Shown: piece after piece, positions 7,006-25,985 of the stretch | How the letters are laid out: every line of letters begins with the position of its first letter | Position numbering within the stretch: position 1 is the first letter of the stretch | Assembly (NCBI GenBank): GCA_037441385.1 | Contig: JBBISH010000082.1 | Span: 1-30,948, forward strand | DNA length: 30,948 nt | Origin: Myxococcales bacterium | GTDB lineage: Bacteria; Myxococcota_A; UBA9042 | Direction: 5' to 3' | Position numbers and translations under genes: made by a program | The notes under the pieces: generated by a model | Database searches by the model: none | Told to the model about the DNA's origin: nothing | Seen by the model: the letters and a program-made list of their open reading frames with translations, nothing else

Positions 7006-7030
7006 GTGCGAGGAGCGGGACTTGAACCCG
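7006..7030. repeat. att site: displaced 3' fragment of tRNA-Leu
   Basis: GTGCGAGGAGCGGGACTTGAACCCG, identical to 25901-25925. TGG at 7004-7006 (CCA on the minus strand) overlaps its first base. Confidence 0.95.
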
Positions 7031-9860: not shown

Positions 9861-9882
9861 CCACTTGAAAACAGGAGATAGC

Positions 9883-11819: not shown

Positions 11820-13067
11820 ATGGCGATTCGTACTCTGGCGCGCAAGACCAACACCGGCACCGGGACCCTGCAGGTCATCCAGGATCCCATCTACGACCAC
11901 ACCTTCCGCGTCGACGCAGTTCTCATCAAGCTGCGGGCGAACATCAAGAACACTGATACCTCCGCGCAGAACATGAGCGCCGCCACGTTTGGCCACGCCT
12001 GGAAGCTGAAGTACGAGTACGCCGACGGCATGAAGTGGTACGACAACGTGCCGCTGGTCGCTGTGGAGCGTATCTTCGAGCAGACCACGCGCAACTATCT
12101 GGTCAACCCAGTGGAATTCGCCAAGTCGGCGGCGTCGTCGGCTCTGTCGACTTACAGCAGCGATGGCCTGATTTCGGCCGGTGCGGCGCCGAACCCCGTC
12201 ACCGGCAACATCAACGACCTGACCCGGAGCTTTCAGAAGGAAGTGCGCGACCGCCGCGTCATTGCCGTCAGCGGCACGGCGTCGGACATCGACTTCCGCT
12301 TCCTGCTGCCCCTGGCGCGGCCCAACGCGAGCAAGCCGGTGGACTTCTGCCAGGCCCTGTCGCTGCTGGGCAAGCTGGACGTCCAGCTGACCAACGACAC
12401 CGGCAATGCTTTCCTGACCGTCAACAGCTTCACGGTCGAGGCCATCGCCATCGGCGAGCGCGTGGACAACTTCTACGCCGGCGTCCGCACCCGCCACTTC
12501 ATCCAGGGCGCCCAGCTCAACGTCATCGACGACGCCATCGCCTTTTCGGGCGACCGCCTGCTGGCGCACCACATGTACGCCACCAGCGGCAGCATCGCCG
12601 GAGTCGACCTGGTCGCCAAGCTGGACGGCAGGCACACCATCGTCGAGCTGAACAATGGCACGGTGGTCACCGAGTTGAACAAGCTGACCGGCGTGGTGGC
12701 CGGCGACTTCCCGGCCGACAGCGAGCGCAACATGACCGACGCGGTGTTGGTGGTCGCCGAGCCGTTCAAGTACAGCATCTTGGACCGGCCCATCAGCCGG
12801 GGCCTGAGCCTGCACTGGTCGAGCAACGCGGGCACGCCCGGTACCCAGTTCCACGTGGTGTCGGTGGCGGCGCCCAAGTCGGACCGCTGCCGCGTGGCGA
12901 CCTACCCGGGCGGCGGCAACATTACCCCGGCCAGCCTGGACCGCGTGACCCGCGTGCAGGCCCGCAACCCCGGCATCGACCCCAACGTGCTCAAGAACAT
13001 CAAGGACTGGCTGCCCGAAGAGGTCTTCACCCCCGAGGCCACCGGCTCGGCGCCCTGCGGGGCGTAG
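11820..13067 (+). CDS. Putative double-jelly-roll major capsid protein (415 aa)
   Basis: AGGAG RBS and strong codon bias. Two repeats of a strand-strand-DG-strand-helix pattern (VDAVLIKLRA..KLKYEYADG..VPLVAVERIF..FRFLLPL..LDVQLT; LLAHHMYA..LVAKLDGRHTIVEL..VVTELNKL). No TM; located just after the packaging-type ATPase. Fold inferred by eye. Confidence 0.68.
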   Translation: MAIRTLARKTNTGTGTLQVIQDPIYDHTFRVDAVLIKLRANIKNTDTSAQNMSAATFGHAWKLKYEYADGMKWYDNVPLVAVERIFEQTTRNYLVNPVEFAKSAASSALSTYSSDGLISAGAAPNPVTGNINDLTRSFQKEVRDRRVIAVSGTASDIDFRFLLPLARPNASKPVDFCQALSLLGKLDVQLTNDTGNAFLTVNSFTVEAIAIGERVDNFYAGVRTRHFIQGAQLNVIDDAIAFSGDRLLAHHMYATSGSIAGVDLVAKLDGRHTIVELNNGTVVTELNKLTGVVAGDFPADSERNMTDAVLVVAEPFKYSILDRPISRGLSLHWSSNAGTPGTQFHVVSVAAPKSDRCRVATYPGGGNITPASLDRVTRVQARNPGIDPNVLKNIKDWLPEEVFTPEATGSAPCGA

Positions 13068-13085
13068 TTCGCAAACCGCCGGCGG

Positions 13086-13097
13086 CTATGTGAATAG
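13086..13097 (+). repeat. CTATGTGAATAG motif, copy 1
   Basis: 19 nt after the capsid-candidate stop, in context CCGCCGGCGG-motif-CCTGCAGGCGG. Confidence 0.9.
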
Positions 13098-13176
13098 CCT
13101 GCAGGCGGTGGTGACCAGCTGGGCCGGGTGGATTCCCTGCCCGGCCCGGCTGGTGGTTCTGAGGGCCGAGGTCGCG

Positions 13177-13995
13177 ATGGCATCGAAGTTCGGAAACATC
13201 AAAGACCTCTGGTCCAACTTGGACACCTGTATTCGCGACAGGACGTCCTGGATTGAGCTGGGTTCGGCAGCGACCGGTGGATATCCGGCCATGCTCAAGC
13301 TCCTCGCTGAGAAGGCCCAGGAGTGCTCGGCTGACCCGAATACCCAGTACCGGACGGCAGTACAACTCGCTGAACTCTTTGGGCAGACGCCACCGAAGCA
13401 GTCAGATTTTGGCATCAACGCGGATGGGACTGTCGGCAAAGGAACCACCATGAACGACGGACGCGGCTCGCAGACGGTTGGTGACCCGGCCGACCAGGCC
13501 AAGAACCAACATGACGACATCGCCCGGGCCATTTCGTACCAGTTGCTCGGCACCAGTTGCACCAGCGACATCCAGCTTCCGGGCAACACCTGGTCGCGCT
13601 GCCGGACTGGCATGGATGGCTACGGCTATACCATTGACACGTCGCGCTACCCGCTGACCAACAAGCAATTCGTGGCGATTAAGCAGGCTGTGCAAGATGC
13701 GGCGGCTCTGGGGACCACACCCGACGACATGCTTGCCCGCGGCCAGGCGGCCGCCACGGCGGAGCTCGCCAAGCTGGGCATTGGGGCCAAGCTGCCCGGC
13801 CCATCCGGCGGCCCCGGCATGATCCCCGGCGAAGTCGGCCCCGGCATGATCCCCACCGGCGGCGACCCCGGCAGCACCGGCACCAGTCGGCCCCAAAAGT
13901 CCAACACCGTCGCCATGGCCGGCCTGGGCCTGCTGGGCGGCGCCATCGCGCTCGTGGGCGCCTGGTACATCGCCAAGGCCGTCAAGGCCAAGTAA
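13177..13995 (+). CDS. Tail-anchored membrane protein, putative virion protein
   Basis: GAGG RBS; four Cys; Gly/Pro linker with GPGMIP twice; C-terminal TM then AKAVKAK. Confidence 0.7.
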   Translation: MASKFGNIKDLWSNLDTCIRDRTSWIELGSAATGGYPAMLKLLAEKAQECSADPNTQYRTAVQLAELFGQTPPKQSDFGINADGTVGKGTTMNDGRGSQTVGDPADQAKNQHDDIARAISYQLLGTSCTSDIQLPGNTWSRCRTGMDGYGYTIDTSRYPLTNKQFVAIKQAVQDAAALGTTPDDMLARGQAAATAELAKLGIGAKLPGPSGGPGMIPGEVGPGMIPTGGDPGSTGTSRPQKSNTVAMAGLGLLGGAIALVGAWYIAKAVKAK

Positions 13996-14021
13996 GCGCC
14001 CGCAGCGCCAAAGGATTCGCC

Positions 14022-14450
14022 ATGAGCTGCAGCAGCTGCCAGATGAAGAAGCACTCCGGCCACAAGGACGGCGGCGGAGAGCAATTTGAGGCGCACGTAC
14101 GCAGGCTCGCCCACAAGGCCGGCATGCAGCATCGGGCGAGTTCTGCGCCCGCTGGCCATGCCGAAGCAAGTGCTGCGCCAGCCGCCCATGCCGAGCTGGT
14201 TCCGCCCCCCGAGCGGCAGACAAGGGTGATTGCCCACATCGACGACAAGCAGCCGCTGGAACCCGTGCGGGTCGACCCAAAGCGCCCCGGCATCCCTGGC
14301 GATGCTGGCCCACAAGGCTGGGACATCAAGCACACCCACGCCACCAGCAACCTGTGGCACGAGCCGGTGACCTGGCTGGCGGGCGCGCTGGCGCTGTCGG
14401 CCGTCGCCGGCCTGGTCTCGACCATCATCTATGTGAAAGCAAAGGGCTAA
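14022..14450 (+). CDS. Tail-anchored membrane protein
   Basis: N-terminal MSCSSC, His-rich body, C-terminal TM then VKAKG. Confidence 0.7.
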   Translation: MSCSSCQMKKHSGHKDGGGEQFEAHVRRLAHKAGMQHRASSAPAGHAEASAAPAAHAELVPPPERQTRVIAHIDDKQPLEPVRVDPKRPGIPGDAGPQGWDIKHTHATSNLWHEPVTWLAGALALSAVAGLVSTIIYVKAKG

Positions 14451-14455
14451 GCACG

Positions 14456-14956
14456 ATGGCGACCCGCGCGCAAAACCTGGTCAGCACCTACGGCACCGGC
14501 CCCGTCAAGGGCGCCGCCGAGGTCATGGCCTTCATGGAGGCGATGCGCGACGCCGGGCTTACCGACAAAGAGGCCTGCGTCGTGGGCGCCTGGCTGGGCG
14601 GCGCGCCGGCCGAGCACTGCCCGGGCTACAACCCCTGGGACTGCACCTTCCGCCAGACCGCGCCCGAGGCCTGCGACAGCAACCTGGAGGTCAGCACCTG
14701 CACGGCGCGGTTGAACAAGCTGGACGCCGAGCTGGCCGGCCTGATCAACGCCAAGGCGACCGGCCAGCAGTGGCGGCAGACGCAGAACGAAGAGCGCAAC
14801 GTGCAAGAAGACGTGGCCAAGCTGAAGGAAAAGGCCAGCGCCGCGCTGACCTTCGACGTGCTGGGCCTGTCGGTCACGCCCAAGATGCTGGCGGTCGGCG
14901 GCCTGGTGGCCCTGGGCGCGCTGGTGGTCTGGCGCGTGGCCAAGGCGGTGGCGTGA
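14456..14956 (+). CDS. Tail-anchored membrane protein
   Basis: Cys-containing domain, coiled coil, ends FDVLGLSVTPKMLAVGGLVALGALVVWRVAKAVA. Confidence 0.75.
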   Translation: MATRAQNLVSTYGTGPVKGAAEVMAFMEAMRDAGLTDKEACVVGAWLGGAPAEHCPGYNPWDCTFRQTAPEACDSNLEVSTCTARLNKLDAELAGLINAKATGQQWRQTQNEERNVQEDVAKLKEKASAALTFDVLGLSVTPKMLAVGGLVALGALVVWRVAKAVA

Positions 14957-15309
14957 TGGCGGTGACCGTCTTTGACTCCATCGACTTCCTGAACGGCGGC
15001 ACGGACAACGAACTGGCCCGTAAGCTGGGCGCCGCAGCAGCCAAGCAGGCCGACAACGTCCTCAGCTACATCAAGCCCGTGGCCGAGCGCCAGGGCGAAG
15101 CGGTGTTCAAGAAGCTGGCGCCCGTTGCCGCGGAGCAGGCCGCGCCGGCGGCGGACAAACTCTGGTCGGCACTGCAGGACAAGGCGAACGAGGAATTCTC
15201 GTTCGACGTCCTTGGCTTCACGGTCACGCCCAAGATGCTGGCGGTAGCCGGAGCGGTGGCGCTGGGTGCGTTGGTGGTGGTGGGCATCGCGAAGGCGGTG
15301 AAGGCATGA
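14956..15309 (+). CDS. Tail-anchored membrane protein with paralogous anchor
   Basis: TGATG coupling; ends FDVLGFTVTPKMLAVAGAVALGALVVVGIAKAVKA. Confidence 0.75.
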   Translation: MAVTVFDSIDFLNGGTDNELARKLGAAAAKQADNVLSYIKPVAERQGEAVFKKLAPVAAEQAAPAADKLWSALQDKANEEFSFDVLGFTVTPKMLAVAGAVALGALVVVGIAKAVKA

Positions 15310-15851
15310 ACGCAAAAGCCCTGTACACCGCCTACGGCCTGGGCAAGGCCGCGGGCCCGACCAAGAATCCCGAGGAGTACTCGAACATCCTGGCGGCGCT
15401 GGACAAAGCCATGGCGCCAAGCGACAAGGCCGAACTGTGCATGTTGAAGGCGCATTTTGCCAACACCATTGCCGGTGCTGCGCCCGCGGCCGACAGCTGT
15501 GGCGGCGGAACGAAGTACGGTTCGGCGCTGGAGGCTCTGGAAGGGACCGACAGCGAGTTGGCCTACGTGTACGTACGCAAGCTGGGCCTGAGCAAGGCCG
15601 ATGCGCAGCAGGTGCTGGCCAACGTACCGAACTGGCCAGAGAAACTGGCCGCGGTGCCACCCAAGCCGAAACCGAAACCTAGTCCCAAGACCCCGGCCAA
15701 AGCGCCGGACCCCAAGACCCCGGCCCTGCCGGCGGCAGTTGCGGCCAAACCCAGCGCCGTCAACGCGAAGACTGTCCTCCTGGGTGTCGGCCTGCTGTTG
15801 GCCGCCATCGGGGTGGGCACCCTGGCCCTGCGCTCGCTGCGCACGGCGTGA
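15306..15851 (+). CDS. Tail-anchored membrane protein with Pro/Lys stalk
   Basis: ATGA overlap; PKPKPKPSPKTP linker; C-terminal TM then RSLRTA. Confidence 0.75.
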   Translation: MNAKALYTAYGLGKAAGPTKNPEEYSNILAALDKAMAPSDKAELCMLKAHFANTIAGAAPAADSCGGGTKYGSALEALEGTDSELAYVYVRKLGLSKADAQQVLANVPNWPEKLAAVPPKPKPKPSPKTPAKAPDPKTPALPAAVAAKPSAVNAKTVLLGVGLLLAAIGVGTLALRSLRTA

Positions 15852-15858
15852 GGTTACT

Positions 15859-16164
15859 ATGTACCTGAGTTGGAAGGGCGTTATCGCCTCGACCATCGTC
15901 TGCGCTGGTGTCGGTGCCGGCGTCGGCGCGGCCATGGGCAGCACGGGCAAGGGCGCGGCCATCGGTGCCGGCGCGGGCTTGCTCGCCCCGGTGATTGCCG
16001 AGGGCCTGGAAGGCATGTTCGACGGCGCCCGGGCCGAGGCCACCACGGCGCTGAAGCAGATGCGCAATGCCGTCAAGGACGGCGACCCGGCCGCGTTGGC
16101 GACCGCCAAGGGCGAGTTCGACAAGGCGATGCTGGAAGTCCAGAAGGCGCCCGAGGCCAAGTAA
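15859..16164 (+). CDS. Glycine-zipper membrane protein
   Basis: GAGG RBS, ATG 15859; AGVGAGVGAAMG...GAAIGAGAGLL. Confidence 0.7.
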   Translation: MYLSWKGVIASTIVCAGVGAGVGAAMGSTGKGAAIGAGAGLLAPVIAEGLEGMFDGARAEATTALKQMRNAVKDGDPAALATAKGEFDKAMLEVQKAPEAK

Positions 16165-16190
16165 CCCCGGCCGCCAGGTGGCGCCGGCGC

Positions 16191-16202
16191 CTATGTGAAT
16201 AG
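16191..16202 (+). repeat. CTATGTGAATAG motif, copy 2
   Basis: Intergenic, within the extended hairpin GCCGGCG-C-motif-C-CGCCGGC. Confidence 0.9.
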
Positions 16203-16256
16203 CCGCCGGCGTCGCCCTGGCCGGGCAGACCTGCAACCGCCTGCGTCGAGGTCGGC

Positions 16257-16607
16257 ATGTCCTGCGCCCCCTGTGAATCCAAGCTGCAGCAAGTCGTGCG
16301 GGCCGCTGCGACCCGGACCGACGTCTACATCGATATCCCCAGCTGCCACAACCGGTTGCGGGTGCAGTCGTCGCCGGCGTCGACCGTTTCGGGCGGTACC
16401 GTCAAGGCGCTGCTGGGCGTGCGCGACCCAGAGAGAGTCACAGACTGGGTGTTTGGCAGCGTGGGCAGCATCGCCTACGCCGCCGAGGGCGGCCAAGTCA
16501 CGTCGATTATGGCCCCCGACATCCCGCACCAACTGCGCGTGATGGTGGTGGGCTACGGCGGCACCGGCGAACTGGTCGTGCTTGTCGAATCCTGGAGGGA
16601 AGCATGA
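16257..16607 (+). CDS. Small beta-rich protein, single-jelly-roll penton/vertex candidate
   Basis: GAGG RBS; 116 aa of alternating hydrophobic strands (VYIDIP, LRVQS, LRVMVVG, LVVLVES). Function inferred. Confidence 0.5.
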   Translation: MSCAPCESKLQQVVRAAATRTDVYIDIPSCHNRLRVQSSPASTVSGGTVKALLGVRDPERVTDWVFGSVGSIAYAAEGGQVTSIMAPDIPHQLRVMVVGYGGTGELVVLVESWREA

Positions 16608-16957
16608 CCGAGGAAGCCCGCAACATCGCTATCAAAGCCATCGTCTCGGTGGTCGGCGGCGTCATCGTCTACGTCAGCGGTCACCACATCGGCGGCGTCG
16701 CGGCGGAAGAGACCCATGCGGCCAAGTCGGCGGGGGCAGATGAGGCGGCCAAGGCCGTGCAAGTCACGCTGCAGCACGAGTTGCAGCCCCTGCAGGCCGA
16801 TATCCGGCGCCTGACCAGCGCGGTCGACACGCTGTGGGCCACTCGCCAAACGACCGAGGCCCGCCTGGCGGCCCTGGAGCTGCCGGCGTCGGCGACGGCC
16901 GCGGACGACTGGCGCCAGTTGCCGGTGCAGGCCATTCACGCCCGCAAGGGGCACTAG
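16604..16957 (+). CDS. N-terminal TM plus coiled-coil protein (holin/spanin-like or virion membrane protein)
   Basis: IAIKAIVSVVGGVIVYV then heptad region; coupled to the downstream hydrolase genes. Confidence 0.6.
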   Translation: MTEEARNIAIKAIVSVVGGVIVYVSGHHIGGVAAEETHAAKSAGADEAAKAVQVTLQHELQPLQADIRRLTSAVDTLWATRQTTEARLAALELPASATAADDWRQLPVQAIHARKGH

Positions 16958-17646
16958 TGCGCCTCCCCTCCCCAACCCTGCTCGCCATCGGCCTGACCGC
17001 CGCCGGCTTGCTGATTGCCGGCCTGGCCTGGTCCGATGAGGTACGCGCCATGCTTCCCGCCGATCGTTGGGGCAAGAAGCCCCTGAACGCCAAGCAAACC
17101 GAGTGGCTGCGCGGCCTGATTGCCGACGCCACGGGCATCATCGCCGCGGGCGGTTTGCCGACCAACGTCGCCATTGCTCAGGCCGCCATCGAGACGGGCT
17201 GGGGCAGCGCCGGCCGCAACAACCCGTGGGGCCAGCGCGGCAAAGGCGATGCTGGCTCGCAGCAGTACACCACGACCGAGTGTTTCAAGGCGGATTCGTG
17301 CACGGTCTTGCACGACCAGACCTTTGCCAAGTACTCGTCGCAGGCGGCGGCCGCCCAGGGCTATGTGCGGTTCCTGGCGGGCAAATCCTACATACCCGGC
17401 AAAGCGTTCTTGCCGCAGGACCCCGGTCGCTGGCTGCTCTGGCTGTGGGCGATGGGCTACGGCACCGCCAACCACTACGCCGTCACAGTGGTCGACGTCA
17501 GCCGCAAAATCGCCGTGACGCTGGACGATGCCAGCTATGCCATCGACTGGAGCGACGCGCACAAGGCCATCGCCGACCAGTTGAGCCAGGCCGACGCCGG
17601 CAGCGCGCGCCGCGCCAAGGCCCGCGAGCTGCTGGGGGTGAGCTAG
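16957..17646 (+). CDS. GH73 (FlgJ/glucosaminidase-like) peptidoglycan hydrolase with N-terminal TM
   Basis: AQAAIETGWG, NNPWG, TTE, FAKYSS, GYGT..Y; GTG start overlapping the upstream TAG. Confidence 0.82.
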   Translation: MRLPSPTLLAIGLTAAGLLIAGLAWSDEVRAMLPADRWGKKPLNAKQTEWLRGLIADATGIIAAGGLPTNVAIAQAAIETGWGSAGRNNPWGQRGKGDAGSQQYTTTECFKADSCTVLHDQTFAKYSSQAAAAQGYVRFLAGKSYIPGKAFLPQDPGRWLLWLWAMGYGTANHYAVTVVDVSRKIAVTLDDASYAIDWSDAHKAIADQLSQADAGSARRAKARELLGVS

Positions 17647-18239
17647 TGGTGCCGGTGCGCCCGGCCCTGCTCATCGGCCTGGCCGCGAGTCTGGTGGTGG
17701 CGGCCGGCGTCGTGGCGGCGCTGGAGTACCGCAAATGGCAACGGAGGGTGCAGGTGATTGACAAGAACCCCGCGTTTTCGCACCGGAGCGCCCGCACCAA
17801 ACCGGTGAGTGCCATCGTCATTCACCACACCGTGACCGGCAACCCCAAGGCGACCGAGCGCGTGCTGGAGCAGCGCGGCTTCTCGACCCACTTCGAGGTC
17901 GCGCAAGACGGCACGGTGATTCGCTATTTGGACCCGGCGCAGTGGGTGGCGCTGGCCAGCAACTGGGCCAACGACCGCTCGATTGGCATCGACGTCACGC
18001 ACCTGTCGCACGCAGCCTGGCCGGCTGTCCAGGTCGACGCGGTGGCCCGCCTGGTGGCCGAGCTGCGCGAGCAGTTCCCGGGCATCGCCGCCGGCGTCGC
18101 CCCAGACGGCGTGCGCTACGACAGTTGGCACCAGGTGCCGGCGACGGTGGGCCTGCTGCGCCACCGCAACGTGCACGCCACCGAGTGCCCCGAAGACTTC
18201 CCCATGGAGCGACTGGGCCCGGTGGTCCCGCGCGCCTGA
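17646..18239 (+). CDS. N-acetylmuramoyl-L-alanine amidase (Amidase_2) with N-terminal TM
   Basis: IVIHHT, STHFEV..DG, NDRSIGI and HRNVHATECP zinc-ligand motifs. Confidence 0.88.
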   Translation: MVPVRPALLIGLAASLVVAAGVVAALEYRKWQRRVQVIDKNPAFSHRSARTKPVSAIVIHHTVTGNPKATERVLEQRGFSTHFEVAQDGTVIRYLDPAQWVALASNWANDRSIGIDVTHLSHAAWPAVQVDAVARLVAELREQFPGIAAGVAPDGVRYDSWHQVPATVGLLRHRNVHATECPEDFPMERLGPVVPRA

Positions 18240-18266
18240 ACCACCACCACCGCAAGGAGCAAGACC

Positions 18267-18410
18267 ATGAGCACGGCGTACTGCATGAAATGCGAGGGCA
18301 AGCACACCATCAAGGGCGAGACCAGCAAGAAGGCCAAGAACGGCGCTTACCTGGTGCGCGGCAAGTGCAGCAAGTGCGGCGGCAAGGTCGCGACCTTCAA
18401 GAAGGGCTAG
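18267..18410 (+). CDS. 47-aa Lys-rich zinc-ribbon protein, DUF5679-like
   Basis: Below the ORF-track cutoff; AAGGAG RBS; MSTAYCMKCEGKHTIKGETSKKAKNGAYLVRGKCSKCGGKVATFKKG. Confidence 0.78.
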   Translation: MSTAYCMKCEGKHTIKGETSKKAKNGAYLVRGKCSKCGGKVATFKKG

Positions 18411-18414
18411 TCCG

Positions 18415-18444
18415 CCTGCAGCCTATTCACATAGACGCCGGCGG
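18415..18444 (-). repeat. CTATGTGAATAG motif, copy 3 (inverted), 30-bp extended form
   Basis: Reverse complement is CCGCCGGCGTCTATGTGAATAGGCTGCAGG, identical to 23371-23400. Confidence 0.92.
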
Positions 18445-18467
18445 CGCCGGCAACCGACGAGGGCAGC

Positions 18468-18635
18468 ATGAGCAAGACGGTCAAGGTCGAGGGTTACACC
18501 CGCAAGGCGACGCACCGCAAGGGCGGCAAGGTCCGCCAGCACTCGCGCAAGGGCGCGGACGTGAAGGCGACCAAGGTGGCGGGCTACACCCGCAAAGCGC
18601 CGAGCAAGAAGGCCAAGGCCGGGCAGCTGCTTTAG
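18468..18635 (+). CDS. 55-aa highly basic protein, putative DNA-condensing core protein
   Basis: Below the ORF-track cutoff; GAGG RBS; MSKTVKVEGYTRKATHRKGGKVRQHSRKGADVKATKVAGYTRKAPSKKAKAGQLL with KVxGYTRKA twice. Confidence 0.68.
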   Translation: MSKTVKVEGYTRKATHRKGGKVRQHSRKGADVKATKVAGYTRKAPSKKAKAGQLL

Positions 18636-18827
18636 GCCCGGCCCTGGAGCTGGCGCGCCGCTGCGTGCGCTGGCCCTGGCTGGAGCCGTGGCCGACCTGC
18701 ACCTGCTGCGGGCGGTAGATCGTTGAAAACCTGCTAGTTCATGCACACCCCGCGCTGGCTTGAGCTGGCGCGGGGTGCTGTGGCGCGCGGTGATGGGCGC
18801 TGCTACACTGGAGGCCGGAGGTGCAGA

Positions 18828-18989
18828 ATGACAAAGGCAAACGCGCACAGCGACAAGCACAAGCCGACAAAGGCAGAGCTTCAAGAGCAGGTGCGGAAAA
18901 TCCAAAAGGAAGTTCGCAAGGTAGTGGGCGACAAGCGCAGCTTGGTCGACGAGTTCCTGGCCGAAAAGCACCAGGCCCCGCAGCAGTGA
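18828..18989 (+). CDS. vapB: Short VapB-like antitoxin
   Basis: GGAGG RBS; SLVDEFLAEK resembles VapB C-termini; GTGA overlap with the PIN gene. Confidence 0.62.
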   Translation: MTKANAHSDKHKPTKAELQEQVRKIQKEVRKVVGDKRSLVDEFLAEKHQAPQQ

Positions 18990-19378
18990 AGTACCTGCTC
19001 GACGCCTCGGCGCTGCTGGCCGTGGCCAACAACGAGCGCGGCGCCGACGTGGTCATGGATGCCGCCGGGCTCGCCGTGATCAGCTCAGTCAACTACGCAG
19101 AAGCCGCACTGAAGCTGCGAAGAACGGGCATTCCCATGACCGTATTGATGCAGCTCAAAGCGGTGTTTCCCGTTGTCCCGTTTGCCGCCGCCGATGGCTT
19201 CTACGCCGGTTCGATTGCTGTGGACAGACCCCGACGCGATTCTGGATTTGGGCTTGGTGACCGGTGCTGCCTTGCTGTGGCCAAGCGACTCAAGGCAGTT
19301 GTGCTGACCAGCGACAAGAAGTGGGCTGAGCACGACGAGGCGACCAAGACCGGCGTGCAGCTGCTGTTTATTCGCTAG
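18986..19378 (+). CDS. vapC: PIN-domain VapC-family toxin
   Basis: YLLDASALLA, ISSVNYAE, GLGDRCCLA, VLTSDKKW. Confidence 0.9.
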   Translation: MKYLLDASALLAVANNERGADVVMDAAGLAVISSVNYAEAALKLRRTGIPMTVLMQLKAVFPVVPFAAADGFYAGSIAVDRPRRDSGFGLGDRCCLAVAKRLKAVVLTSDKKWAEHDEATKTGVQLLFIR

Positions 19379-19381
19379 CTG

Positions 19382-19771
19382 CTACGCCACCCGGTCCGCA
19401 GCCCAACCCCGCACGACCCGCCCCACCCAGGGCTCGCGCACGTACCGATGCACCACCGCCGAGTACTCGGCCACGTCCTTCGGCACAAAGGCGCGGTGCT
19501 GACTGTCCAGCCCGGCAACCTGCACGGTCGCGTTGCGCCACTCGTTGGGCCCGACGCCGTCGCAGGACTGCCACGCGGCCCGGCTGGCCAGCTGCCACTG
19601 CACTTCGAGCAGCGCGCCCACCTCGTGGTGGTGGCGCACGCGGTGCTGCTCGCGGAGCTCGATGGTCAGGGCTTCGAGCATGTCCGAGTTGGCGCGGCCG
19701 TGGTTCAGGGCCAGCAGCTCGCGCACCAGGCCGCGGGTGTCGACGGTTCGTTCGTAGGAGCGGCGCGGCAT
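19382..19771 (-). CDS. Hypothetical protein (129 aa)
   Basis: GAGG RBS before the ATG at 19771; directly downstream of the nucleotidyltransferase-like gene. Confidence 0.6.
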   Translation of the reverse strand: MPRRSYERTVDTRGLVRELLALNHGRANSDMLEALTIELREQHRVRHHHEVGALLEVQWQLASRAAWQSCDGVGPNEWRNATVQVAGLDSQHRAFVPKDVAEYSAVVHRYVREPWVGRVVRGWAADRVA

Positions 19772-19785
19772 GGGTACCTCGAGTG

Positions 19786-19797
19786 CTATGTGAATAG
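19786..19797 (+). repeat. CTATGTGAATAG motif, copy 4
   Basis: In the 38-nt gap between two minus-strand genes; followed by GCTGCA as in copies 3 and 5. Confidence 0.9.
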
Positions 19798-19809
19798 GCT
19801 GCAAGCCCA

Positions 19810-20481
19810 CTACGACAGCTTGTAGCGCTTCTTGGCCTTGGGATGGCCAACGCTCTGCAGCATCGTTTCCAGGCGCCCCATCAGCAGCGGCGCGTACTTG
19901 GCAGTCAGCTTGCGCACCTGGTCGACGTCGGTGGTCGGCAGCAGCAGCAGGCGGCACACGTCGTCGTCGTCGGTGGGCCGGGCCGCCGCCAACTTCATGA
20001 TCAGGAGCATCGGCGCCGACACCACCGGCAGGCAGCGCCCGCCCACTTCGACCTGCAGTTGCTCGCGCTTGCTGGCGGCGATAGCGGCGCGAAACAGCGC
20101 GCTCAGGTCGCCCCACTCGGGGTTGCTGCGGTCGATGAAGTCGACGTTGACCCCGCTCGCCTTGTCGCTGGCGTTGAAGCCGCCAATCAGCAGCTCTTGC
20201 ACCTTGAGGCCCTTCTTGGTCGCCCAGGCTCGCAGCTTCGGCAAGTCTGCCGGGGCGACCCCCATGTCCAGGTCCTTGGTAAAGGCCTGCTGCGAGGGGT
20301 CGGTTACCCAGGCCCACACCGCCAGGCGGCCGATGAGCACGCCGGCGACGCCCGTTTCGCGCAGGGCATCGTCGGCCAGGCGGCCACTGGGCGCTGGGTC
20401 AAAGGTCGGGAACGGCCGGCCGGCGTTGACGATGGTGACGCCGTTTGATTTTGCGGGTTTGCTGCCGGGTTTGCTGGGCAT
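19810..20481 (-). CDS. Pol-beta-superfamily nucleotidyltransferase-like protein
   Basis: LIGRLAV...TKDLD, VDFI and LLIMKLAAARPTDDDD motifs (AbiEii/DUF6036-like pattern). Confidence 0.72.
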   Translation of the reverse strand: MPSKPGSKPAKSNGVTIVNAGRPFPTFDPAPSGRLADDALRETGVAGVLIGRLAVWAWVTDPSQQAFTKDLDMGVAPADLPKLRAWATKKGLKVQELLIGGFNASDKASGVNVDFIDRSNPEWGDLSALFRAAIAASKREQLQVEVGGRCLPVVSAPMLLIMKLAAARPTDDDDVCRLLLLPTTDVDQVRKLTAKYAPLLMGRLETMLQSVGHPKAKKRYKLS

Positions 20482-20531
20482 GGGTCACCTCGCCTTGCAG
20501 TCTAGGGGTGGGGCGGTGGGGGGAGCAAGGG

Positions 20532-20894
20532 TCAGGCTTTGGGCTTCTTGCCAAAGAGACCGCGAAAGAGCTCCAGAAGCCCGGGAATGGCGAATACAAC
20601 CAGCGCACCGAAACAGAACGACTGAATCAGCGACACCGCCTTGTCCAGCTCGATACCGCCAACTGTCATGCCGACCAGGGCGCAAAATGCCAAGAGAAAT
20701 ACCACGAAGCCAACAATGATCATGCGGTGTAGCCTGTCCAGCTCGGCCATCCGCGCCTTGTGGCGGGCCCGGTGTTGCTCAAGGCGTCGGTCGAGGTCGC
20801 GCTGATGGGCCTGAAGGTGTCGCTCAAGCAAAGTCAGCAGTTGCTCAAAGATAGCCCTGTCGGGGCTTTCGGGCGTTGGACTCGGCTGCGTCAT
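20532..20894 (-). CDS. Membrane protein (coiled coil plus two TM segments)
   Basis: GAGG RBS; IIVGFVVFLLAFCALVG and FCFGALVVFAIPGLL. Confidence 0.65.
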   Translation of the reverse strand: MTQPSPTPESPDRAIFEQLLTLLERHLQAHQRDLDRRLEQHRARHKARMAELDRLHRMIIVGFVVFLLAFCALVGMTVGGIELDKAVSLIQSFCFGALVVFAIPGLLELFRGLFGKKPKA

Positions 20895-20927
20895 AGGCTA
20901 TCCTCGCGGCACCCAAAGGAGGTGACG

Positions 20928-21464
20928 ATGCGACGACTACTTGTGGCAGCTCTGACCCTGGCCGCATGCGCGGCACCATATCGACAGATTCCGGTTGCAG
21001 ACCGGATAGCACCAGCCGCCAAGGTCGGTATCCTGGAATTCCGCGACTGCCCCAATGCGAAGGGCCCAACGTGCGACGGCAGCGGAGTGGCCGCTACTGC
21101 AGCATTTTCGAAGGGCTTTGAAGAAGAAGCCAAATTGACGCTGGTGCGAATTGCCCGGCCGGTTGCGGCCAACGCGCTGATCACCGACAAGCAGGCGATT
21201 GCGGCCGCAGCGGGCGAAGGCGTTGATTTTGTGTTGGTCGGCGACGTGCACGCGTACTTGGACATGCAGCCGTCCGGCGCACCCGTGGAGATGTACGGTG
21301 GGGGCAACCGCGACCAGGCTGGGCTGCTCGTGCGGCTGATTCGGCTTCGCGACAAGCGTGTGGTGGCGACCTTGAACCAGGACCAGACTGGCATGGCCAG
21401 GGACGTCCCGGACGAAATGTTCCAGAACATGGGCGCGGACTTCGCGCGGACAGTTCGGCAGTAG
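20928..21464 (+). CDS. Putative lipoprotein (alpha/beta domain)
   Basis: AAGGAGG RBS; MRRLLVAALTLAAC lipobox; GVDFVLVGDV strand. Confidence 0.75.
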   Translation: MRRLLVAALTLAACAAPYRQIPVADRIAPAAKVGILEFRDCPNAKGPTCDGSGVAATAAFSKGFEEEAKLTLVRIARPVAANALITDKQAIAAAAGEGVDFVLVGDVHAYLDMQPSGAPVEMYGGGNRDQAGLLVRLIRLRDKRVVATLNQDQTGMARDVPDEMFQNMGADFARTVRQ

Positions 21465-21465
21465 C

Positions 21466-21831
21466 TCACGCCGACTTCCGCTCTTCCAGCGGCCTCAGCT
21501 GAATCCCCCGCTCATCCGCGAACTTCTGGACGTCGGCCAGGTCGAAGCGAAGCTCGCCGAGGGCCTTGCGGGCAGAGAGCTGGCCGCGGTGCACGTACAT
21601 CCCGACCGCGCCAGCGGAAACGCCGAGCATGTCCCCGACTTCCTGCGACGTAAGACCGCTGATCATCGAACGAAAGCGCTCCAGCTCGTCCAGGCTGTAG
21701 ACGATTGCCGTCCCGCCCGCGACGCGCTCGTGCTGCAACTCACCCTTTCGGGTCCAGTGCCGCACCATGTACTCGGACATGTTGAGCATTTGAGCTGCTG
21801 CGCGTACCCCGAACAACTGTGCCTCTGTCAT
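21466..21831 (-). CDS. Tandem MerR/excisionase-type HTH protein, putative repressor or recombination directionality factor
   Basis: Two repeats: VRAAAQMLNMSEYMVRHWTRKGEL and TSQEVGDMLGVSAGAVGMYVHRGQL. Confidence 0.82.
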   Translation of the reverse strand: MTEAQLFGVRAAAQMLNMSEYMVRHWTRKGELQHERVAGGTAIVYSLDELERFRSMISGLTSQEVGDMLGVSAGAVGMYVHRGQLSARKALGELRFDLADVQKFADERGIQLRPLEERKSA

Positions 21832-21856
21832 GGCCGACTCTCGCGGCGTAGGCCGC

Positions 21857-21921
21857 ACTATACAAAATTGACGTGGGCACCGTCAAGACATGTTGACATC
21901 CCTACGAGCCCCCGCTAAGCT
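21857..21921. promoter_or_regulatory. Back-to-back sigma70-type promoters with operator-like inverted repeat
   Basis: Plus: TTGACA 21893-21898, N17, TAAGCT 21916-21921. Minus: TTGACG 21886-21881, N18, TATAGT 21862-21857. TTGACG-N7-CGTCAA at 21868-21886. Confidence 0.65.
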
Positions 21922-21944
21922 GCCCTCAACCCCTGGAGGCAGCC

Positions 21945-22454
21945 ATGAAGAACCCGCACCCAACCCCAAGAACAATCATGCACATGGTCCAGAGCGCGGC
22001 CGAGGCCCACCTGGACTGCCGACTGCGCGAAGCCGAGGCCCAGGCCGCCTTCGACCGCAACAACCGCGCCGAGCAGGCGCTGTCCACTGCCGAGAAAGCT
22101 TTCGTCCAAGCCCGGGCCAACCTGCTGACCTTCATCGCCCGGACCAACCCCACCAGCATGAAGGTGAGCGCGATGGACGAGTTCGCCGTCCTCGCCGCCA
22201 CCTACCGCGACCGCGCCAACGCCGGCCTGGCCGCCAGCGAGGAGTTCATCACGTCCTCGTACGACGTCATGCGCGAGCGCAACGACACCGGGACCCTCGC
22301 CAAGCTCAAGCTGGACCTGGAGCTCCGCGCCAAGCGCCTGAGGATGGCGGTCAAGGCCGAGCCCTGCGACTGCGACGAGTGCCAGTGGGAGCGCGACCAT
22401 CCCACCGTCAAGGACACGGCCGAGGTCGACGGGCCTTCCGGCGGGGAGGGCTAG
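21945..22454 (+). CDS. Helical hypothetical protein with CDCDEC motif
   Basis: GGAGG RBS; first gene of the rightward early operon. Confidence 0.65.
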   Translation: MKNPHPTPRTIMHMVQSAAEAHLDCRLREAEAQAAFDRNNRAEQALSTAEKAFVQARANLLTFIARTNPTSMKVSAMDEFAVLAATYRDRANAGLAASEEFITSSYDVMRERNDTGTLAKLKLDLELRAKRLRMAVKAEPCDCDECQWERDHPTVKDTAEVDGPSGGEG

Positions 22455-22457
22455 GTC

Positions 22458-22856
22458 ATGGCGACCACCCGCGAAGACATCCTTGCCCTGGTCCGCACCT
22501 ACGCCACAGACGTTGGCGCGTGCCAGTTTGCGAGCGACGCCCAGTACGCCCAAATGCAGGTCGCGGCTCGGGCCACGTTCGCCAAGATTGAGGCGGCGGT
22601 GGGCGAGTTGCAGCGGACGCCGGACGACTTGCCGGCCTGCATCGAGAGCTGGGTGCTTGCGAAGGCGGCGAGCGTCCGCAGCTGGAAGGCCATGAGCCTG
22701 AAGCGTATCGGACGCGACGAAGTCACCTACGAGATTGAATTGGCCATCGCGCGGCTGGTCAAGGCCGGCCGCCTGCAGCGCCTGAACTTTGGACACGGGC
22801 ATGTGGAATACGAGCTTCGCGCGGTCGACCAGGCCGCTGCCGACAAGGAGGCCTGA
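22458..22856 (+). CDS. Hypothetical protein with C-terminal winged-helix-like motif
   Basis: IELAIARLVKAGRLQRLNFGHGHVEYEL. Confidence 0.6.
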   Translation: MATTREDILALVRTYATDVGACQFASDAQYAQMQVAARATFAKIEAAVGELQRTPDDLPACIESWVLAKAASVRSWKAMSLKRIGRDEVTYEIELAIARLVKAGRLQRLNFGHGHVEYELRAVDQAAADKEA

Positions 22857-22859
22857 GCC

Positions 22860-23756
22860 ATGACCCCGAACCACACCCCAGACCCGCGTATCGTCGACAT
22901 CCTGGAAGCCGCCGAGGCCGTGGCCGTGGAGCGCGCCGCCCTGGCCGCGGCCCGCGCCGCCGAAGACGCCGCCCGGGCGGTCGAGCAGGCGGCCCAAGTC
23001 GCCTACGTCGAGGCCCACAACGCCAGCATCGCGGCAGTGCGCGAGGCCTGCACCAGCGTGGACTGGGCCGACGCCAACACCACCACCACCACCCAGCGCG
23101 CCTTGACCGCGTTTCATGCCCGGCGCAAGGCCAGTGATGCGGCGGCGGCGGCGCAGGCCGCGGTCGACCAGGCGCAGCAGCGGTTCAGCGCGGCGCTGGA
23201 ACGGCAGCAGGCCGCCATTTCGATGGTCGAACTGGCGCTGGCGGCGCTGAAGGTCTTCCTGGCCGAGCCGGAGACCGACCCGTCCAGCCTGGTAGACGAA
23301 CTCATGGACTCGCTGAAGGCCAAGAACTGGGTTGAGGTATCCGGCCAGGTCCCGCCGCGGGTCGAGCAGACCGCCGGCGTCTATGTGAATAGGCTGCAGG
23401 TGCCGGCACTCGACCGCGACCAGGCCATTGGCGCCCAGGTGCGGGCCGAGCTCGCCACCGCGCCGGCCCGGGTGCCTGTCTTGCCCGAGCCCGACCTCAC
23501 GGGGCTGCGCAGCCGCGCCCTGGCCATGATGAAGGTCTTGATCAAGGCCGACGCGCCCGTGGCCGTCGCCACCATCATGCGCGAAACCGGCTTGAGTTCC
23601 GCCGAGGTATCGCGAGCCGGCTACGACCTGCGCCAGGCGGGCAAGGCCCAGAAGCTCGGCCCGGGCTTTTGGGCCCACGCCAAGTACACGGGGCCGAAGT
23701 TCGACGACAACCACGACCAGCACTGGGCCAAGCGGACGGCCAAGGCGGAGGTATAG
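22860..23756 (+). CDS. Ala-rich coiled-coil protein with C-terminal winged HTH
   Basis: AAGGAGG RBS; VATIMRETGLSSAEVSRAGYDLRQAGKAQKLGPGFW. Confidence 0.7.
   Translation: MTPNHTPDPRIVDILEAAEAVAVERAALAAARAAEDAARAVEQAAQVAYVEAHNASIAAVREACTSVDWADANTTTTTQRALTAFHARRKASDAAAAAQAAVDQAQQRFSAALERQQAAISMVELALAALKVFLAEPETDPSSLVDELMDSLKAKNWVEVSGQVPPRVEQTAGVYVNRLQVPALDRDQAIGAQVRAELATAPARVPVLPEPDLTGLRSRALAMMKVLIKADAPVAVATIMRETGLSSAEVSRAGYDLRQAGKAQKLGPGFWAHAKYTGPKFDDNHDQHWAKRTAKAEV
23371..23400 (+). repeat. CTATGTGAATAG motif, copy 5, 30-bp extended form inside a CDS
   Basis: CCGCCGGCGTCTATGTGAATAGGCTGCAGG, in the linker of ORF 22860-23756. Confidence 0.92.
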
Positions 23757-23759
23757 GCC

Positions 23760-24056
23760 ATGGCCAAGAAGCGCATTCCCACCAAGCCCTTGCTGCTCAG
23801 CGACCTGCAGCGCGCTGTGCTGCTGCTCATCGGCCACACCGACCGCGCCACCGTGCACGGCCTGCTGCGCCAGCTGCCGGCGCTGGGGCACCAGGTGCGC
23901 CAAACCGTGCTCGAGCAGCTGCTCGAGGAGCTCACGGACTGGAATTTCTGCGCCAGCTACCCGTCGACGGACCGCCAGGGCCGCACGCGATACCTGCGCC
24001 TGACCATCCTCGGCCGAGAGGCCGTGGCTACCCCTACGGCTCAAATCGAGTTGTAG
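23760..24056 (+). CDS. Small winged-helix-like (PadR/MarR-like) protein
   Basis: GGAGG RBS; LEQLLEELTDWNFC...RTRYLRLTILGREAV. Confidence 0.62.
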   Translation: MAKKRIPTKPLLLSDLQRAVLLLIGHTDRATVHGLLRQLPALGHQVRQTVLEQLLEELTDWNFCASYPSTDRQGRTRYLRLTILGREAVATPTAQIEL

Positions 24057-24098
24057 TCTCAATGCCCTCGCCGGGCCACCCAAGGAGCCGTTACCACC

Positions 24099-24647: not shown

Positions 24648-24669
24648 TACCCGCTGTAGGAGCCGAATC

Positions 24670-25866
24670 GTGACCGACACCGCCGCCAGCTTCACCTTGC
24701 ACCGGGCCGACCATCGCGGCGCCGAGAGCTGGCGTGCGGTGGTCACGTTGCCCGATGGCCGCAAGCTTTGGTTCCGCCGGCCGACCAAAGCCCTGGCCCA
24801 GGCCGCCGCCCAGGCCGCCCTGGTCGCCGGCACCACCATCACCATCGAGCGCGCCATCGACGAGTACTGCGTGCTGCGCTTTGAAGGCGGGGCCTGGAGC
24901 AAACACACCGAGCGGCGCGCCAGGCTGGACCTGGGCGACCTGGTGGGCCAGGACAGCCAGCCCATCGCCAGCATGGGCCGCCAGGCGCTGCTCGAATACC
25001 TGGAGCGGACCAAGCACCTGGCGCTGGCCAGCCGCCGCACCCGCTGGGCCAGCGTGGTGGCCTGGCTCAAGTTCTGCGTGGCCGAGGGCTGGCTGGACCG
25101 CAATCCGGCCGACTTGATTGACCGCAGCCGCAAACCCTGGCTGGGCAAGCGGGCCAAGCGGCAAATCGGCCGAGGCAAGGCGCAGTTGCGCAACTCAGAC
25201 GAAGTGCAGCGGTACATTACCGAGGCGCTCCGGCTGGTCGAGCTTGAAGAGCGGGTGGCGGTGCTGCTGCCGCTGCTGTGCAACATGCGCTCCGGCGAGG
25301 TACTGCACTTGACCTGTGGCGACGTGGACTTGCCGCTGGGCGTGCTGCATGTGCGCGACCAAGACGCGCGCGAAGACGACGACGAAGGCTGGTCGGTCAA
25401 GAGCGTGGCCGGTCGCCGGTCGGTATACATCCCCCAGCTGCTGGCGGCCGACCTGGCGCTGCTGGTGCAAGACCAACCGCTGGACCGCTGGCTGTTTGGC
25501 TGCTGGGGCCGCGAAAAGGGCGACCGCCGCCGGCGCGTGCCCCACGACTGCGAGTGGCTGGCGCGCCTGGTCGAAGGGGTGTGCGAGCGGGCCCAGACGC
25601 GCATCGTGAAACCTCACGGGTTGCGGGGCACTTACATGACCGTGCTGGCCGTGGTCGGCAAGGTCGCACCGATGGACATCGCGCGCTTGGTCGGCCACGG
25701 CGACGCCGGCTACACCGCCGAGCGCCACTACCTGGGTGCGCTGAGCCCGCAGCCGGCGATGCCGGAGCTGGGCGCGAGCGCGAACACCGTGAAAGGACGC
25801 GAGAACCCGGGCAGCGATTCACAAGTTTCTAACGGCCCATTGGGGCAATCGGGGGAATGCCAATGA
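24670..25866 (+). CDS. int: Tyrosine recombinase/integrase
   Basis: Catalytic set visible: MRSGE (R), VKS (K), HGLR, VGH, RHY; core-binding domain ending RNPA; adjacent to att/tRNA. Confidence 0.93.
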   Translation: MTDTAASFTLHRADHRGAESWRAVVTLPDGRKLWFRRPTKALAQAAAQAALVAGTTITIERAIDEYCVLRFEGGAWSKHTERRARLDLGDLVGQDSQPIASMGRQALLEYLERTKHLALASRRTRWASVVAWLKFCVAEGWLDRNPADLIDRSRKPWLGKRAKRQIGRGKAQLRNSDEVQRYITEALRLVELEERVAVLLPLLCNMRSGEVLHLTCGDVDLPLGVLHVRDQDAREDDDEGWSVKSVAGRRSVYIPQLLAADLALLVQDQPLDRWLFGCWGREKGDRRRRVPHDCEWLARLVEGVCERAQTRIVKPHGLRGTYMTVLAVVGKVAPMDIARLVGHGDAGYTAERHYLGALSPQPAMPELGASANTVKGRENPGSDSQVSNGPLGQSGECQ

Positions 25867-25900: not shown

Positions 25901-25925
25901 GTGCGAGGAGCGGGACTTGAACCCG
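25901..25925. repeat. att site overlapping the tRNA-Leu 3' end
   Basis: Identical 25-mer to 7006-7030. Confidence 0.95.
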
Positions 25926-25985
25926 CATGGCCTTGCGGCCGTTAGCACCTCAAGCTAGTGCGTCTACCAATTTCGCCATCCTCGC
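25902..25985 (-). tRNA. tRNA-Leu (GAG)
   Basis: GCGAGGA/TCCTCGC acceptor stem, anticodon loop TTGAGGT, long variable arm GGCC-GCAA-GGCC, T arm GCGGG-TTCAAGT-CCCGC, discriminator A. No encoded CCA. Confidence 0.95.

Follow-up and report, generated by a model that had tools for sequence, protein, structure and literature searches.

The window analysed here is a 30,948-nucleotide stretch (contig JBBISH010000082.1, assembly GCA_037441385.1) from an uncultured Myxococcales bacterium. It contains an 18.9-kb provirus, in which a 12-nt word, CTATGTGAATAG, recurs five times (Table 1). The provirus was delimited at positions 7006 and 25925, because the 25-nt repeat GTGCGAGGAGCGGGACTTGAACCCG occurs at 7006-7030 and again at 25901-25925, where it forms the 3' end of a tRNA-Leu gene beside the integrase. 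All five copies of the word lie between these two repeats. The initial annotation had described the region as a provirus, and the attachment (att) repeats and the tRNA gene bear this out; the capsid likeness comes from a weak model. The capsid protein matched no Pfam or PHROG family, and its structural model was of low confidence (predicted local distance difference test, pLDDT, 52), with the capsid proteins of PRD1 (P3), STIV and PBCV-1 as its top Foldseek matches (E 2.7e-9, template modelling score, TM, about 0.3). On this model it is reasonable to regard the element as a putative virus of the tail-less, membrane-containing, PRD1-like kind. The sequencing depth over the element (about 11, in the likely source run) was equal to that of the flanking chromosome contigs; no RNA run was listed as containing the element. 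The leftward direction of the genes around copy 4 was taken from GC-phase analysis.

Table 1. Features of the provirus and copies of the 12-nt motif, in window coordinates.
Feature	Position	Strand	Remarks
attL, 25-nt copy of the tRNA-Leu 3' end	7006..7030	+	left provirus end
VapE-type helicase	7673-8935	+	
Packaging-type ATPase	10248-11459	+	
Major capsid protein, putative double jelly-roll type	about 11823-13067	+	start placed from homologues of about 400 aa
GC-rich imperfect hairpin, copy 1 at apex	13069..13114	+	RNA -27.8 kcal/mol, z -4.75, 0/200 shuffles as stable
Motif copy 1	13086..13097	+	extended unit 13076-13108; starts 18 nt past the capsid stop codon (13065-13067), 79 nt before ATG 13177
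Second hairpin, 18-bp GC stem	13114..13161	+	followed by TGGTTCT (TGGTTGTTTTGG in the relative); z -4.0 in the window, -3.95 in the relative
Run of small proteins, partly glycine-zipper	13177-16164	+	
9-nt partial motif CTATGTGAA	14429..14437	+	in the C-terminus of open reading frame 14022-14450
Long hairpin, about 25 bp, copy 2 at apex	16165..16228	+	RNA -49.8, DNA -25.7 kcal/mol
Motif copy 2	16191..16202	+	starts 26 nt past stop codon 16162-16164, 54 nt before ATG 16257
Two proteins without known function	16257-16957	+	
Glucosaminidase	16834-17646	+	
Amidase	about 17646-18239	+	
DUF5679 zinc ribbon	18267-18410	+	
Motif copy 3 (inverted)	18423..18434	-	unit 18412-18444; 12 nt past the DUF5679 stop codon, 33 nt before ATG 18468
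Small basic repeat protein	18468-18635	+	
Antitoxin-like open reading frame and PIN protein	18741-19378	+	
Leftward block led by the tandem helix-turn-helix protein	21858 down to about 19385	-	
Motif copy 4	19786..19797	+	38-nt gap between two minus-strand genes; 12 nt past the stop codon of 19810-20481, 14 nt before ATG 19771
Tandem excisionase/BldC-like helix-turn-helix gene	21466..21858	-	putative motif binder
Rightward block, three winged-helix-like proteins, then integrase	21945-24647	+	
Coiled-coil and winged-helix protein	22860..23756	+	gene carries copy 5; second putative binder
Motif copy 5	23381..23392	+	in frame in 22860-23756, Y175-V-N-R178, linker before the winged-helix domain
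Tyrosine integrase	24670..25866	+	phrog_1, E 1.7e-24
tRNA-Leu(gag)	25901..25985	-	its 3' 25 nt (25901-25925) are attR, the right provirus end

The five exact matches to CTATGTGAATAG that had been reported initially were found again, and the window held no further match with a single mismatch. The chance expectation for the word is 0.01 copies, and none of 100 dinucleotide-preserving shuffles reached five. The 10-mer TATGTGAATA was the most over-represented word of its length in the element, with 5 copies against 0.0022 expected. The reported absence of the motif from the host flanks also held on the scale of the whole assembly (6,626,521 bases in 221 contigs, GC 0.669), where all five exact copies were on the window contig, inside the provirus, and none was found elsewhere. 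The looser pattern CTAT-N4-ATAG occurred eight times genome-wide, five of these being the present copies. An nhmmer profile built from ten copies, i.e. those of the window and of the relative described below, recovered from the whole genome only the same five (E <= 0.002), the next match having an E of 9.2. Among 401 genomes sampled from the phylum the word was present in 15, the host genome included; the other 14 had one or two scattered copies each, a level similar to that of the reversed-word control. Scanning of a genome contig collection gave 99 single matches in unrelated taxa, consistent with chance, and the known relative; the viral contigs of IMG/VR gave one chance match, on a contig of 55% GC without similarity to the window, and in the GenBank phages the 41-nt unit was matched by chance only, over short stretches. 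The motif is a real and statistically solid finding, and one that is under selection, while its mechanism is what we infer.

The copies resemble the repetitive extragenic palindromic (REP) sequences and bacterial interspersed mosaic elements (BIME) in being short imperfect palindromes which lie in gene gaps in either orientation. The latter are present in tens to hundreds of chromosomal copies, whereas no copy of the present motif exists outside the provirus. A REP-like genome-wide repeat, which the initial annotation had named as one outcome that would overturn its idea, was therefore rejected, since 6.6 Mb of sequence held no copy outside the provirus.

The similarity of the copies extends over the flanks. 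GCCGGCG on the left and SCTGCA on the right, both described before, are each present in four of the five window copies, copy 4 being the exception on the left and copy 2 on the right. Over the ten copies of the window and the relative, the symmetry continues past the 12-mer with G at -2 and C at +2 (8/10 each), and the central loop is GTGA in nine copies and GCGA in the tenth, while ATGTGAATAG is the part of the core that does not vary. Copies 3 and 5 are identical across 30 nt, copies 1 and 3 have 94% identity across 33 nt, and copies 3 and 4 form an inverted pair of 40 nt (78% complementary) on the two sides of the toxin-antitoxin segment. The 9-nt partial match CTATGTGAA was present as reported; it belongs to a coding C-terminus and has no conserved counterpart in the relative, and it is either a decayed copy or chance.

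The likeness of the motif to a DnaA box had also been pointed out, as its reverse strand, CTATTCACA, agrees with TTATNCACA at 8 of 9 positions. As DnaA boxes the copies might titrate the host DnaA or block transcription. Five of the six occurrences of CTATTCACA in the genome are indeed in the element. The conservation, however, spans 12 bases and the flanks and not a 9-mer, the first T of the box is a C in every window copy, the perfect TTATNCACA occurs ten times in the host genome and never in this contig, and the copies are dispersed over 10 kb instead of being clustered at a candidate origin. We find this explanation scarcely credible, and a DnaA box was rejected.

As had been stated, four of the five copies are intergenic and separate gene groups. 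The gaps that they occupy are short, and each of the four starts 12-26 nt past a stop codon; copy 5 is in frame inside an open reading frame. Relative to the local transcription, copies 1, 2 and 5 are in sense and copies 3 and 4 in antisense orientation, again in agreement with the initial description; in the relative even the centre of copy 2 is flipped. Several simple assignments were tried on these positions and rejected. A promoter reading found no basis, since neither a sigma-70 -35/-10 pair, nor sigma-54 spacing, nor a shared -10 element could be recognised by eye downstream of the copies, and a promoter scan gave none at a copy. An activator site at about -50 would suit copies 1 and 2; for copies 3 and 4 the start codon is too close. 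Likeness to the XerD arm of dif left the second arm without a match, the copies are too dispersed for arm sites of the lambda type, and a replication fork trap around the antipode of the repeat region at 9.7 kb would disagree with the orientations of copies 1 and 2 (all by eye).

Comparison was possible with a single close relative, since the virus group is rare. Whole-genome searches detected capsid relatives in 4 of 61, 4 of 37 and 3 of 401 genomes, the host genome being included in each count, and a search of 5.8 billion proteins yielded six capsid homologues. A profile of seven capsid sequences found one metagenome locus (L106), which extends no further than the capsid gene and lacks the 12-mer even when two mismatches are allowed. 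Neither the single sequence nor the seven-sequence profile gave capsid relatives in the IMG/VR viral contigs, none was present among the GenBank phages, and the capsid protein alone found no match in the genome contig collection. Two distant relatives (G025 and G033) contained no 12-mer within two mismatches and, in k-mer and hairpin scans, no dispersed private repeat. The close relative, G005, belongs to the same genus; its element is spread over four small contigs and has about 78% DNA identity to that of the window (77-85% across the contigs).

In this relative the motif is kept at the three sites that both elements share. The copy-1 site has an exact 12-mer, flanked by the two halves of a perfect inverted repeat; the gap shows 12/12 identity within the 12-mer and 76/109 in the remainder. 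At the copy-2 site the plus strand reads CTATTCGCATAG, i.e. the motif inverted and with the centre GCGA, and when it is read inverted the identity is 11/12, against 63/84 for the rest of the gap. The stem arms of this copy, GCCGGCG/CGCCGGC in the window, are replaced by the compensating pair GCTCGAG/CTCGAGC. At the copy-5 site CTATGTGAATAA stands in the same reading frame. The motif is absent from the copy-3 site, where another sequence of equal length (34 nt, counted on the alignment) lies between genes of 85% identity, and the copy-4 site is unassembled. Two further variants are present in the relative. One, TTATGTGAATAG, stands in place of 290 other bases of the window; the other, CAATGTGAATAG, lies in a linker rich in Ala and Pro, within a different open reading frame.

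The case of copy 5 is informative with regard to the level at which selection acts. The proteins carrying it are homologous and collinear along their full length in the two elements, with 47% overall identity, and in the indel-rich linker the sole alignable island is CCGCCGGCG-K-CTATGTGAATA-R. The codons used by the motif are rare among the genes of the element (TAT 6/71 of Tyr, AAT 6/92 of Asn, AGG 14/333 of Arg codons), with a joint probability of about 1e-4. Since rare codons are kept at a conserved island, the conservation of copy 5 points to selection on the nucleotides rather than on the peptide.

This distribution of copies bears on two further explanations. One is that the copies are selfish or neutral mini-palindromes, which multiply inside the virus through copying or gene conversion and settle without function where they are tolerated, in gaps and disordered linkers. 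The near-identity of copies 1, 3 and 5 over 30-33 nt combined with the heterogeneous flanks in the relative, the differing presence of copies between close relatives, their occurrence in either orientation, and the in-frame copies in low-complexity linkers would all suit such an origin. It does not agree with the lack of any copy in the remaining 6.6-Mb host genome, nor with the conservation of the 12-mer, which exceeds that of the adjoining sequence at each of the three shared sites; moreover, the copy-3 site of the relative is occupied by a different sequence and is not an empty site, and the element scans found no gene resembling a REP- or IS200-type transposase. The probability of this explanation is low in our estimate.

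The other explanation is that the copies serve as sites of site-specific recombination, for cassette exchange or inversion in an integron-like or invertase-like manner, which the initial annotation had listed among its possibilities. The inverted pair of copies 3 and 4 encloses a toxin-antitoxin segment with a different content in the relative, and one variant copy of the relative stands where the window has 290 extra bases. Contigs assembled from three DNA runs of one study, one of them possibly from the source sample, showed no joint at the motif with a credible flank; this is weak evidence, since the listed joints had sides of at most 30 nt, taken at 85% likeness, and contigs cannot show rare variants. 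Most homology breakpoints against the relative are away from the copies (2 of about 8 touch a motif), the motif is unlike the att core of the integrase, and the protein with copy 5 is collinear in both elements. An attC site (RYYYAAC ... GTTRRRY) was rejected, as the 12-nt flanks of the ten copies contain no GTT or AAC core, and the integrase matches general phage families only. The exchange of cassettes at the motif is thus very improbable, and this part of the initial proposal was not borne out.

Two of the copies are parts of larger structures. Copies 1 and 2 form the apices of long GC-rich hairpins, and together with their counterparts in the relative they reach RNA folding energies of -27.8 to -35.6 kcal/mol over 48 nt (z -4.6 to -5.7). 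The hairpin of the relative has -33.6 kcal/mol at the copy-1 site and, despite 13 substitutions and 6 gap columns, -43.5 kcal/mol at the copy-2 site. In total 14 and 19 alignment columns differ at copies 1 and 2, respectively, the stability being equal or nearly so, and none of 1000 random mutants was as stable as the hairpins of the relative, with either RNA or DNA parameters. This means that base pairing is selected at both sites. At copies 1 and 2, and at the flipped copy 2 of the relative, folding favoured the gene-sense over the antisense strand by 3-6 kcal/mol, a weak hint that the hairpin layer acts in the mRNA.

The remaining copies behave differently. Copy 3 has a moderate hairpin (z -1.59 on the minus strand), and copies 4 and 5 as well as three copies of the relative have none beyond an apex of 4-6 bp (z -0.7 to +0.7), so that an extended stem is lacking in 5 of 10 copies. 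Compensating stem changes were found at copies 1 and 2; a consensus fold of five copies has double changes in no more than 2 of 11 pairs, the reason being that the sites do not share homologous lower stems. An Rfam scan returned only the tRNA above threshold and no family at the motif. Directly after copy 1 a second hairpin follows, with a weak T run in the window and a stronger one in the relative (TGGTTGTTTTGG), which is likely an intrinsic terminator or attenuator behind the capsid gene, and a likelier terminator than the hairpin of copy 1.

One alternative is an RNA-only signal, in which an intercistronic hairpin capped by a GNRA loop (GUGA) would end, process or stabilise the upstream message. 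The starts of copies 1-4 within 12-26 nt past stop codons, the strong hairpins at copies 1 and 2 which remain stable in the relative in spite of 14-19 differences, the sole variant centre GCGA being still a GNRA loop, the better folding of the sense strand at copies 1 and 2 and at copy 2 of the relative, and the terminator-like hairpin directly after copy 1 can all be accommodated in it. What it does not accommodate is that copies 3 and 4 and the copy 2 of the relative present a non-GNRA complement to the local mRNA, that copies 4 and 5 and three copies of the relative have no extended hairpin, and that copy 5 and one copy of the relative are within coding sequence. The invariant AU-rich apex common to all copies is unexplained by a terminator or processing stem, none of the nine terminator-like sites found in the scan coincides with a motif copy, and no Rfam family was recognised. 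As the explanation of the motif as a whole we consider an RNA-only signal unlikely, albeit one deserving serious weight.

Particular RNA classes were rejected on similar grounds. A sense-strand GNRA hairpin at every copy is contradicted by the orientations: all ten copies have GTGA or GCGA as their loop, but two of the five window copies and copy 2 of the relative are antisense. The U-tract-poor terminators of GC-rich bacteria would be a rough analogue of an RNA-only signal. As intrinsic terminators the copies were rejected, since no T run follows copies 1-5 and 0 of 9 terminator-like sites in 7000-26000 is a motif copy. The RNase III hairpins between the genes of T7 are cut and thereby stabilise polycistronic messages; they act in sense orientation only and are defined by the structure of the stem, whereas the present copies share an invariant apex, are antisense in two of five cases and lack an extended stem in two of five.

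The preference of the initial annotation for a DNA-level site over an RNA hairpin, based on the orientations, is therefore supported for the 12-mer itself. It is not supported for copies 1 and 2 as a whole, which are at the apex of selected long hairpins that had been missed.

A hairpin may also be read in DNA. GC-rich palindromes with an AT-rich apex have the usual architecture of hairpin-read DNA signals, and the AT-rich centre of the motif might nucleate the extrusion of a cruciform, or be exposed as single-stranded DNA, in supercoiled or replicating molecules, where the apex would be read by a replication, priming, nicking or junction-resolving protein, e.g. the VapE-type helicase (7673-8935) or the integrase. 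The simultaneous exposure of both loops would explain the indifference to orientation, and pairing is selected at two sites, with energies of -15.9 and -25.7 kcal/mol by DNA parameters. On the other hand, no HUH nuclease, nickase or resolvase was detected in scans of the element proteins, 5 of 10 copies are limited to a stem of 4-6 bp, the repeats of likely origin type at 9600-9900 are a different family, and the depth shows no sign of replication in the sampled population. A cruciform or single-stranded DNA signal is accordingly improbable.

A related possibility, to which we give a similarly small chance, is that recognition is gated by structure. The apex would then be a virus-private address, read by a viral protein only after extrusion of the palindrome into a hairpin or cruciform. 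How far the viral DNA is supercoiled or replicating, as in a quiet prophage or in a replicating or packaged genome, would switch the module-wise transcription or the handling of the genome, and the stem-less copies in coding linkers might be low-affinity duplex sites of the same protein.

The reading that we favour, although at somewhat less than an even chance, is that the 12-mer is an element-specific recognition site in duplex DNA for a protein of the provirus, which would punctuate the gene modules and would be layered on mRNA hairpins at two of the sites. The cis element has the form G-N-CTAT-GTGA-ATAG-N-C, usually with GCCGGCG on one side and with a total length of 16-33 bp; provirus-private and quasi-palindromic, it is maintained by selection on the DNA sequence itself. 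Since the arms CTAT and ATAG are symmetric, binding would be possible in either orientation, and the mixed orientation of the copies, together with the flipped centre in the relative, suits a symmetric duplex site. The reader would presumably be a sequence-specific DNA-binding protein encoded by the element, and several small DNA-binding proteins are indeed encoded there, in support of this reading. Candidates are the tandem helix-turn-helix (HTH) protein (21466-21858), the three winged-helix proteins (22860-24647), the DUF5679 zinc ribbon and a zinc-finger-like open reading frame from 9733. The sites are in short gaps between the capsid, membrane-protein, lysis, toxin-antitoxin and leftward-operon modules, from which it follows that binding would punctuate transcription, possibly as a roadblock or as an insulation between modules silent and modules expressed in the lysogen. 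Behind the capsid gene and behind the membrane-protein cluster the motif is built into long GC-rich palindromes; these are under selection of their own, and their probable role is in the mRNA, as 3'-end hairpins, processing hairpins or attenuators.

Several observations weigh against a duplex recognition site. There is no copy at the divergent gap 21858-21945, where the sigma-70-like promoter is, nor in the CCTACAC repeat region at 9600-9900. Nine of the ten copies retain GTGA as their asymmetric centre, for which the binding of a simple symmetric dimer would give no reason. Only two elements carry the motif, so that all comparative evidence comes from one pair, in uncultured organisms, and between these close relatives the sites turn over, one window site being lost or never gained in the relative, which has two extra variants. 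The window flanks are homogenised between copies while those of the relative are heterogeneous. The compensating change of both stem arms of copy 2 shows selection on pairing and not on protein contacts to the flanks, and the same word is found exactly at the tip of two independent selected hairpins, which keeps the hairpin-form readings, in RNA or in cruciform or single-stranded DNA, alive. The tandem HTH gene was not found in the assembly of the relative, which is weak evidence, being a single query on a fragmented assembly.

In terms of known systems, dispersed operator or roadblock sites of phages would be the closest functional likeness of the motif, and among these the stoperators are best documented. 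Stoperators are dispersed repressor sites in short intergenic gaps of the genomes of Cluster A mycobacteriophages (L5 and relatives), where they presumably halt the elongation of transcripts once the immunity repressor has bound to them (PMC9283540). They comprise more than 20 copies of an asymmetric 13-mer, bound by a monomer, in promoters and short gaps, whose orientation is strikingly correlated with the direction of transcription and whose reversal abolishes function (PMC9283540). The two share a phage-private short repeated motif in a temperate virus of a GC-rich host, mostly in short gaps; they differ in that here there are five quasi-palindromic copies of mixed orientation, two of them capping long hairpins, and that the binder is only a candidate. 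Membership among the stoperators was rejected with respect to copy number (five, and the profile finds no more), asymmetry and orientation (three sense and two antisense, with a flipped centre). As to location, 4 of 5 copies are in short gaps and none is at the one predicted promoter region.

The repressor of the Streptomyces phage phiC31 reportedly binds conserved inverted repeats (CIRs) that are dispersed over the genome, many of them away from promoters. The CIRs are alike in being palindromic, operator-like dispersed repeats of a GC-rich temperate phage, and different in copy number, length and sequence. The inverted repeat (IR) sites of N15 are said to be bound by SopB and to be scattered over its genome. 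They too are a handful of palindromic sites specific to one prophage, which in N15 are bound by its own protein; N15, however, is a plasmid prophage with SopA/SopB, whereas the present element is integrated. IR1-4 of this prophage-plasmid are given as its centromere sites (PMC7205306). A centromere of the parS type was rejected here, because no family of the ParA, ParB or SopB type was found in Pfam, PHROGs and NCBIfam scans of the open reading frames of the element, in which divergent proteins could be missed.

The motif is a known kind of feature in a new form and in an under-studied virus group. Dispersed virus-private cis motifs are the means by which some temperate phages silence or partition their genomes. 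To our knowledge, almost all the examples come from tailed phages of Actinobacteria and enterobacteria, and we know of no cis-regulatory logic described for this virus group, a limited literature search having returned nothing relevant. Here the same principle would operate in an uncultured myxobacterial lineage, in a PRD1-like provirus that is rare and of the tail-less kind. What is unusual is that the site is symmetric and used in either orientation, is kept in a coding linker at the cost of rare codons and is fused to the tips of two selected hairpins. If a binder is found, the motif would open a first way into the gene regulation of this virus group and would provide a compact orthogonal protein-site pair; if there is none, it would be a small and clean example of a hairpin apex whose sequence is under selection. 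A structure-gated recognition, if true, would amount to a structure-gated punctuation code in a membrane-containing Myxococcota provirus with a double-jelly-roll capsid.

Some further features of the element and its surroundings were recorded. Directly upstream of the HTH gene the minus strand has the only strong sigma-70-like promoter match of the element (21857-21886, TTGACG-18-TATAGT, 10/12), which is likely the lysogeny promoter. A second repeat family, CCTACACCC(GCA)...TGAAA, is present at 9612-9640, 9669-9701 and 9841-9873, between the replication genes and the ATPase and capsid genes, and includes the inverted pair GTGTAGGG..CCTACAC. It occurs also in the metagenome locus L106 (8086-8110, 8140-8164, 8311-8335 and, inverted, 8268-8300), and since the capsid protein of that locus is only about 51% identical, this family should be older than the 12-mer; the repeats are candidate origin iterons or a candidate late-operon operator. 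The true start of the long open reading frame called from 9733 is probably later than listed. Upstream of the capsid gene the stretch 11508-11822 has 63% identity to its counterpart in the relative (L006 4413-4724, on contig C194 of G005), which contains three in-frame stops, and all capsid homologues start near 11823; because of these stops and starts, the 519-aa open reading frame from 11508 is probably too long, or else 11508-11822 is a separate small gene broken in the relative.

A PIN-domain (VapC-like) gene, preceded by a small open reading frame, occupies 18741-19378 in the segment that separates copies 3 and 4. The relative has a PIN gene there as well (L123 450-995), but its segment is longer by about 900 nt and has diverged too far to be aligned as DNA. 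The product of 18468-18635 is a lysine-rich protein of 55 aa with the internal repeat K-x-x-K-V-x-G-Y-T-R-K-A; it is conserved in the relative, matches no family and could be a histone-like or nucleic-acid-binding protein. The host flank contains a direct repeat of 153 nt (1106-1258 and 6832-6984, 78% identical), the second copy of which stops 22 nt short of attL; at 6936-6945 metagenome contigs accumulate and are variable, and this is a repeated host or community sequence.

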